From: Parcubacteria group bacterium CG11_big_fil_rev_8_21_14_0_20_41_14
GTDB lineage: Bacteria > Patescibacteriota > Patescibacteriia > UBA2169
Assembly (NCBI GenBank): GCA_002787075.1
Contig: PCVT01000179.1
Location: forward strand, 1 to 24,340
Length of the DNA: 24,340 bases
Direction: 5' to 3'
The notes under the pieces: generated by a model
Databases searched by the model: none
What the model was told of the DNA's origin: nothing
What the model saw: only the letters and a program-made list of their open reading frames with translations
Shown here: positions 1 to 748 of the stretch, piece by piece
Layout of the letters: the number at the start of each line of letters is the position of its first letter
Position numbering within the stretch: the first letter of the stretch is position 1
Position numbers and translations under genes: made by a program

Positions 1-748
1 CAACATATGTTAAATCCGGAATTTCCTTCCACACATCCGGCAAAGCGCGGATAACTAAGTCAATTCCTTTTCGTTTTACCAGCCGACTGATTGTAAGAAG
101 AATTTTTTTATTTTCTAGATTATATTTTTCTCGCAAGGATTTACCAATGCTTTCATAGTGTCCGCGAGACCCTCCCTTAATCCCCCTCCCTCGGAATACT
201 CGGGACAGGCTCTGAATACAGGAGGGGAAATTTACGCTCGTATATTTCACGAGCGCTACTGAAACAGGAATAGAATAATATGCCAACAACTTGGCTGTTG
301 CGTTGCTGTTCACGATAATTTCATCCGCGTTTAATAGTATACGACGCACTAAGAACGATTTCCAAAATGACCTGCGCGGACGCACCAAATCTAATCCATG
401 CAAATACACGCGATACGGAATCTTAAATAATTTTTTGTAAACTAAAGCAATATATCCGACAGGCAGAATATGCGACACCCAAATTGCGTCGCACTGCCCT
501 GTCAGCGGTGTCAGCGGTCCACGACCCCTACCAAGGGTCGCCGACCGTTTAGCGGACTGAAAGCATTTACGCACATGAAATATCAAAGGCAACCAATTCG
601 GCCAAAGCGACATTTCATAATCCCGCGCTCGCATAACAATCACAGAATTTTGCGCATCCTCAAAACCACGCACTTCCTGTTCCAAGTACTTCCCAACTCC
701 GCCGATGTCTGGCGGATATTCATAAGTTATAAGCAATGGCTTTTTCAT
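1..748 (-). CDS. Glycosyltransferase family 4 (GT-B fold), 5' part only; runs off the left window edge
   Basis: Not in the ORF track because there is no stop in the window. Manual translation from ATG 748 is open to position 2: MKKPLLITYEYPPDIGGVGKYL...VYLHGLD...IIVNSNAT...ILLTISRLVKRKGIDLVIRALPDVWKEIPDLTYV. The YPPxxGG, HGxD, NS and SRLxxRKG motifs are typical of GT4. Confidence 0.9.
   Translation of the reverse strand, partial: MKKPLLITYEYPPDIGGVGKYLEQEVRGFEDAQNSVIVMRARDYEMSLWPNWLPLIFHVRKCFQSAKRSATLGRGRGPLTPLTGQCDAIWVSHILPVGYIALVYKKLFKIPYRVYLHGLDLVRPRRSFWKSFLVRRILLNADEIIVNSNATAKLLAYYSIPVSVALVKYTSVNFPSCIQSLSRVFRGRGIKGGSRGHYESIGKSLREKYNLENKKILLTISRLVKRKGIDLVIRALPDVWKEIPDLTYV
169..232. repeat. 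Palindromic repeat (CCCTCCCTTAATCCCCCT...CAGGAGGGGAAA) with a nested 24-nt module, in frame inside the GT4 gene
   Basis: 188-215 matches murC 7126-7153 at 27/28 nt in reverse complement. Removing 188-211 leaves the near-perfect hairpin CCCCT-CTG-AATA-CAG-G-AGGGG. Encodes roughly NFPSCIQSLSRVFRGRGIKGG. Confidence 0.75.
500..556. repeat. GC-rich hairpin plus 9-nt tandem duplication inside the GT4 gene
   Basis: TGTCAGCGG x2 (500-508, 509-517) and hairpin CGACCC(522-527)/GGGTCG(535-540). Encodes SAKRSATLGRGRGPLTPLT. Boundaries are approximate. Confidence 0.55.

Follow-up and report, generated by a model that had tools for sequence, protein, structure and literature searches.

The described repeats that behave most like the element studied here are the SDRs of cyanobacteria. 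SDR1-8 of the Nostocaceae are reportedly 21-27 nt long and share a secondary structure said to be backed by compensatory changes. They reportedly occur embedded in other repeats and in their own copies, SDR5 lying at a precise position within HIP1, by a mechanism that is said to be not known, and they have reportedly been described from the Nostocaceae only. In the habit of lying in frame within genes, the closest systems are the Rickettsia palindromic elements (RPEs), which are said to be palindromic selfish repeats of around 100-150 bp found in frame in the housekeeping genes of a reduced genome, where they add an extra surface peptide. Insertion sequences that target REPs, such as IS1397, have reportedly been found as well. 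In form, finally, the closest systems are the tagged REPs and the REPINs. In the CGTC-tagged REPs, the tag is unpaired, the loop has 4-5 nt, and complementary A-T pairs open a stem of 8-9 bp (Di Nocera et al. 2013, PMC3733652). Tagged REPs of the GTAG and CGTC super-families are also present inside genes, including repair genes, and RPE-4 and RPE-6 have been equated with CGTC REPs (PMC3733652).

Among the papers that we searched, we found none tying Patescibacteria to REP-type repeats. The window analyzed here (the whole stretch of 24,340 nucleotides) is the start of contig C12 of a CPR MAG from the Komeilibacteria family (1.0 Mb in 222 contigs, 41% GC, about 80% complete). A first-pass annotation had pointed to a 24-mer at 188-211 (plus strand) and 7130-7153 (minus strand), each time followed by CTGA, and had proposed that it was a tiny secondary mobile unit nested in two unrelated repeats. 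Both matches are exact, apart from a single difference at position 18 (A in the first, G in the second), and CTGA does follow both; no match is expected by chance in the window (0 in 100 shuffles). We conclude that the 24-mer probably makes up most of a non-coding, REP-like mini-element of 25 nt that was copied into older palindromic repeats of two unrelated families, called here host A (the copy in a GT4 glycosyltransferase gene) and host B (the copy in murC). It belongs to a family of very small repeats that has apparently been undescribed so far.

The true structural unit is slightly longer than the 24-mer, since it includes the base that precedes it (187 in the first copy, 7154 on the minus strand in the second); it is thus 25 nt long, and an insertion adds 24 nt net. 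This base is T where position 18 is A, in host A and in a third host, C, and it is C where position 18 is G, in host B, all copies of which have the outer pair in the C...G form. Across 42 distinct members of the family, the outer pair is T-A in 14, C-G in 24, and something else in 4, and the fourth pair is C-G in 12, T-A in 26, and something else in 4 (permutation p <1e-4 in both cases). Because these two pairs covary, we regard the unit as a hairpin plus tail of 25-26 nt. Its predicted plan is a four-pair outer stem, two pyrimidine-pyrimidine mismatches, a closing G-C pair, a loop of 5-6 nt, and a six-base tail (Table 1). The degenerate pattern used to search for the family covered the two halves of the unit and left the outer and fourth pairings unconstrained. 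The mismatches, which correspond to tandem G.A on the opposite strand, have their dinucleotides fixed by this search pattern and by the parse, so that their conservation depends on that choice. On the opposite strand, the stem of the unit follows the plan of host B, with a different end. In folding energy, the module and the filled repeats are no better than shuffles, and neither element site (188-211, 7130-7153) has a match in Rfam at gathering thresholds. The sole match to Rfam at this level within the window is a DUF3800-III RNA (Table 1).

Table 1. Coordinates of the elements, their hosts, the genes that carry them, and other features mentioned in the text. Positions are those of the window unless a contig or locus is given.
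Feature	Position	Strand	Remarks
GT4 glycosyltransferase gene, truncated at the contig end	2-748	-	Pfam Glyco_transf_4 and Glycos_transf_1
Host A, left part: C-rich box and left hairpin arm	169-186	+	Matches the form of about 25 empty host A copies
Element copy 1, A-type, 25 nt	187-211	+	Exact match; covariation of outer and fourth pairs, 42 members
Copy 1, base pairs	187-205, 188-204, 189-203, 190-202, then 193-199	+	
Copy 1, pyrimidine mismatches	191/201, 192/200	+	
Copy 1, loop	194-198	+	
Copy 1, six-base tail	206-211	+	
Host A, right part: loop and G-rich right arm	212-231	+	7-bp hairpin with 169-186 once 188-211 is removed
Second, distinct in-frame insert in GT4	about 500-562	-	About 18 residues
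murC gene	6960-8411	-	Host B plus element make 17-18 extra residues in a C-terminal loop
Host B, remainder: core without the inner hairpin seen in other copies, degenerate right end	7110-7129	-	
Element copy 2, G-type, 25 nt	7130-7154	-	First base 7154 pairs with 7136
Host B, 5' end: CGTC tag and first two stem bases	7155-7160	-	Bases native in the same-genus orthologue
Empty host B copy, 31 nt, without element	10733-10763	-	Contig C12, same window
DUF3800-III RNA	12436-12537	+	Rfam, 47 bits
RAYT-like Y1 gene	G000 C112:25-717		
RAYT-like Y1 gene	G000 C135:13151-13744		
Head-to-tail array of the unit	G402:C1:3895-3991		Another Patescibacteria genome
Head-to-tail array of the unit	G095:C4:77248-77370		Another Patescibacteria genome
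Unit after a dnaK-like start	L117 about 1470-1560		

The module thus has a short imperfect hairpin and a short unpaired conserved end, and these traits, together with its high copy number and its intragenic copies, are what brings it closest in form to tagged REPs and REPINs. It differs from tagged REPs in that its end is the six-base tail (206-211), not GTAG or CGTC, and in that its stem is shorter, with two fixed mismatches. A TGTC can be read on the other strand of the module, but this reading uses bases that covary as pairs.

Host A, a repeat of about 42 nt, has a C-rich box followed by a hairpin in which a loop of 8 nt separates a C-rich arm from a G-rich one. Its copies in the genome are empty in about 25 cases and filled in 8. 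The first-pass annotation held that removing the module from the GT4 gene restores a hairpin, and this is what we found: once 188-211 is deleted, the flanks close into a clean hairpin of 7 bp (z -2.45) that has the form of the empty copies elsewhere. The filled copies are not all alike. They make up several subtypes that differ in arms and loops, every one of which is also found empty. Both here and in another genome, hairpins of the host A type hold variants of the element, at least four in all, at the identical junction of arm and loop. The variety seen in filled subtypes and in inserts argues that the unit would have entered host A repeatedly.

In murC, where removal had likewise been said to leave the end of a host repeat, what remains after the deletion is a CGTC tag and the core of a repeat of that type. 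At least 10 empty copies of this repeat exist, one of them in the window (Table 1). The tag CGTC starts 9 of the 11 filled copies and most of the empty ones. Empty copies measure 25, 31, or 36-38 nt and filled ones 60-62 nt, the latter differing from the class of 36-38 nt by exactly 24. The 25-nt empty copy has a stem of nine positions that starts with AT and includes two G.A mismatches, and a loop of 4 nt. In its tag, as well as in this AT-starting stem and its loop, host B has the characteristics of a CGTC-tagged REP. The longer copies hold an extra inner hairpin, which is missing from the core in murC and is of at least four different kinds in other copies. This inner hairpin differs between copies through both compensatory changes and entirely different inserts (e.g., in L014, L015, L017, and L018) around which the outer core is constant, and it may be a further nested module. 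Among filled copies, pairwise divergence is 2.4% in the module and 14.3% in the host part (Fisher p 0.001), with an outer core that is as invariant as the module and a divergence that sits in the inner hairpin. Host B and the module may thus have spread as a single composite.

Across the genome, we identified 15 copies of the 24-mer with up to 2 mismatches and 22 copies of the wider family, in about 20 loci. Nearly every copy in this genome lies within a host A or host B repeat. Copies are not enriched near contig ends (p 0.25). The search for the 24-mer and the tabulation of its flanks, proposed in the first-pass annotation as the way to tell a mobile unit from a fixed part of a single repeat, gave at least three unrelated hosts (A, B, and C) and recovered empty versions of A and B. 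Host C is a context found in contigs of 59-66% GC, where the 24-mer subtype occurs at no fewer than 5 distinct loci. Among representative genomes, the exact 24-mer was found only in a Candidatus Komeilibacteria MAG, in a Parcubacteria-group MAG of the same family, and in high-GC MAGs of Deltaproteobacteria and Binataceae; the viral contigs that we searched contained no exact match. With the degenerate two-half pattern, the wider family was present in 59 of the 401 sampled Patescibacteria genomes, when the reversed control pattern gave 3 hits in total. Hence, the family of 25-26-nt units is common in Patescibacteria and is also present in other phyla. We considered whether the identity across phyla proves recent transfer and rejected this, because around 19 of the 25 positions are constrained family-wide and identical variants can recur. 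Despite this possible recurrence, 5 distinct high-GC loci carry the variant represented by the 24-mer.

In hosts A and B, the 24-mer subtype has a fixed orientation and a single fixed junction. The idea of a conserved CTGA target held only for its first half: CT follows the module at all of about 31 distinct loci, but the full CTGA varies genome-wide, and we found no flanking motif common to the whole family. The proposed targeting of palindromes holds for the 24-mer subtype, whereas most of the sampled family members elsewhere lie outside obvious palindromes. In other genomes, palindromic flanks (exact arms of 6 or more) were found in 17% of the cases against 11% in the control, in a crude test that misses imperfect hosts, a difference that we do not find convincing. 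Standalone members of the family were observed inside a GTPase gene, beside a tRNA gene, and at the start of dnaK. The unit is also nested in itself, as one composite found in two different contexts (C62 and C87), and other Patescibacteria genomes have head-to-tail arrays of at least four units with a period of 24-25 nt (Table 1). Having been found in several hosts, alone, within itself, and in tandem, the unit is separable and copied to new places, as was suspected from the two copies in the window. In one locus (L117), a unit directly follows the first 11 codons or so of a dnaK-like start and a second start of that gene lies just downstream, which suggests a short duplication at insertion.

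It is this combination of size, structure, and nesting that makes the cyanobacterial SDRs the closest analogue in behavior, a likeness drawn from their description. The unit has a comparable length, with two covarying pairs, and it is nested in three hosts and in itself. In contrast with the SDRs, the family is found in Patescibacteria and in high-GC bacteria, and most copies are in frame in essential genes. None of the junctions that we inspected for a target duplication has one. Elements of the IS1397 type are likewise mobile DNA that enters palindromic repeat units specifically, but they are full insertion sequences, with their own transposase and target duplications, whereas the unit described here has 25 nt and is non-coding. 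It also does not look like a MITE, given the lack of duplications at its junctions, its one internal hairpin, and the absence of terminal repeats.

Around 10 of the 15 copies are in frame within genes. They are found in MurC, GT4, GuaA, PriA, PrmC (just past the catalytic motif), UvrA, a class I tRNA synthetase, two GT2, and a frame of 1810 residues. Orthologues from related genera lack the whole insert, which corresponds to about 18 residues in MurC and GT4 and to about 19-24 in GuaA, PriA, and PrmC. In GT4, host A and the element add 18 residues that are missing from the orthologues in five related genomes. The same five genomes lack a second, distinct insert in this gene (Table 1). The MurC insert is absent from the orthologue of the same genus. 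In three other genera (L027/G012, L031/G011, and L034/G008), the C-terminal loop of MurC holds different palindromic repeats, two of the host A type and one resembling host B; judging by these orthologues, the loop is a family-wide insertion hot spot. Host and unit together measure 51-64 nt. The first-pass annotation had argued that a length of exactly 8 codons keeps the frame in both genes. The frame is indeed kept, with a net gain of 24, but the unit itself has 25-26 nt, and we attribute the preserved frame to the survival in genes of only those inserts that are a multiple of three. The eight added codons were tolerated because many host repeats were already in frame in the loops of housekeeping proteins. 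Copies are found on either strand relative to the gene and use at least four different reading frames. We also considered the openness of the unit in all six frames as a special property and discarded it, since 22% of the shuffles have it. In their in-frame habit, these copies resemble most closely the RPEs. They differ in size, the unit having 25 nt and being a second-order insert within repeats of that kind.

The same orthologues raise the question of whether the module moves by itself. It could have entered one copy of host A and one copy of host B, once each, after which only the composites would have multiplied, the module being immobile here. Such a history would explain why host and module are missing together from orthologues: at the orthologous sites of GuaA, PriA, PrmC, GT4, and MurC, examined in as many as ten related genomes, we found no host without module. 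All members of the 90% MurC cluster hold the full insert; those of 465 residues, which we considered as candidate empty alleles, are only gene calls that are shorter at the N-terminus and carry it as well. The restriction of the A form to hosts A and C and of the G form to host B is what two composite lineages would produce, and the invariance of the outer core of host B when filled, together with the lower divergence of filled hosts (14%, against 24% for empty ones), points in the same direction. Yet, the filled copies of host A come in several subtypes that also exist empty, other variants of the element occupy the identical junction, and the core of host B in murC lacks the inner hairpin that has at least four different forms in other copies. 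This history would require at least 3 or 4 separate entries anyway, and we consider it rather unlikely.

If the unit is instead a mini-element that is itself copied, as we favor, we infer that a trans-acting enzyme would copy it in the form of single-stranded DNA. Such an enzyme would recognize the hairpin and the tail and would join the unit into DNA that other hairpins leave exposed. An HUH/Y1 transposase of the RAYT/IS200 kind would be the likeliest candidate; a Y1 (HUH) enzyme that works in trans on single strands would agree with the hairpin, with junctions that are precise, and with the absence of duplications. Four Y1 genes are present in this genome, two IS200-like (on contigs C52 and C162) and two RAYT-like (Table 1), which is more than in any of 13 relatives. 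Among the sampled genomes, a Y1 match is present in 40 of the 58 that have the element and in 149 of the 342 that lack it (69% vs 44%; odds ratio 2.9, p 3.6e-4), in a comparison that counts kin as independent and does not correct for how rich a genome is in mobile DNA overall. Location speaks against this candidate: around 13 Y1 loci of three other genomes (G147, G274, and G042), the flanking 1.5 kb contain no copy of the family, and in this genome the copy nearest to any of the four genes is 2.3 kb away. In addition, there is no Y1 match in G411, a genome that is 98% complete and has 17 copies of the unit, nor in the Deltaproteobacteria MAG. When compared with REPIN/RAYT systems (Bertels and Rainey 2011, PMC3116915), the inverted pair found in high-GC contigs resembles a REPIN, but the copies in this genome are single, not doublets. 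These systems differ from ours in adjacency as well, since no copy of the family flanks the Y1 genes examined, and the two RAYT-like genes are each flanked by their own inverted repeats, which are palindromes unrelated to the 25-nt unit. The inverted pair itself was observed at five high-GC loci (L001, L002, L042, L051, and L055), where about 18 nt after the unit comes the reverse complement of its own 3' half. The frame of this pair holds other variants of the family at L079 and L081.

No dedicated enzyme would be necessary if the units spread by template switching during replication, or by short-patch gene conversion at stalled forks, with a microhomology of 1-2 bases at the junctions. The junctions are in fact ambiguous by 1-2 bases (C or CT on both sides) and free of target duplications, and some of the genomes rich in the element have no Y1 gene. 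Furthermore, the arms of host palindromes show compensatory changes, which quasipalindrome correction would be expected to produce. This process would, on the other hand, be expected to turn the two conserved mismatches of the stem into pairs, and they have never been corrected. It also fits poorly with the presence of the same unit at sites with neither a palindrome nor similarity to the donor context, and with near-identical units across phyla, which makes this account improbable. Even less credible, to the point of being nearly negligible, is that the unit was retained for a function as structured RNA or as peptide motif rather than as selfish DNA, because even if its hairpin is conserved with covariation, the copies lie on either strand of genes and in at least four frames, have no match in Rfam, and are missing from orthologues of the same essential proteins.

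The favored mini-element reading can be extended. The hairpin-plus-tail units of 25-26 nt found across phyla could form the smallest class of actively copied DNA, spread by a machinery other than RAYT, with a preference for DNA hairpins, and building nested repeats that become protein in essential genes of CPR bacteria. The machinery is taken to be other than RAYT in this extension because of the lack of adjacency and because there are genomes rich in the element without Y1. We hold this broader proposal as tentative and doubtful at present. If units of 25 nt are copied on their own, they would set a lower limit to the size of mobile DNA, and one hairpin plus six bases would suffice for recognition. 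The large number of filled and empty sites makes this family a tractable case for finding the enzyme behind CGTC-type repeats and cyanobacterial SDRs. Some of the unusual additional loops of essential CPR proteins are explained by these units, and such low-complexity peptide inserts should not be taken for functional domains when genomes are annotated.
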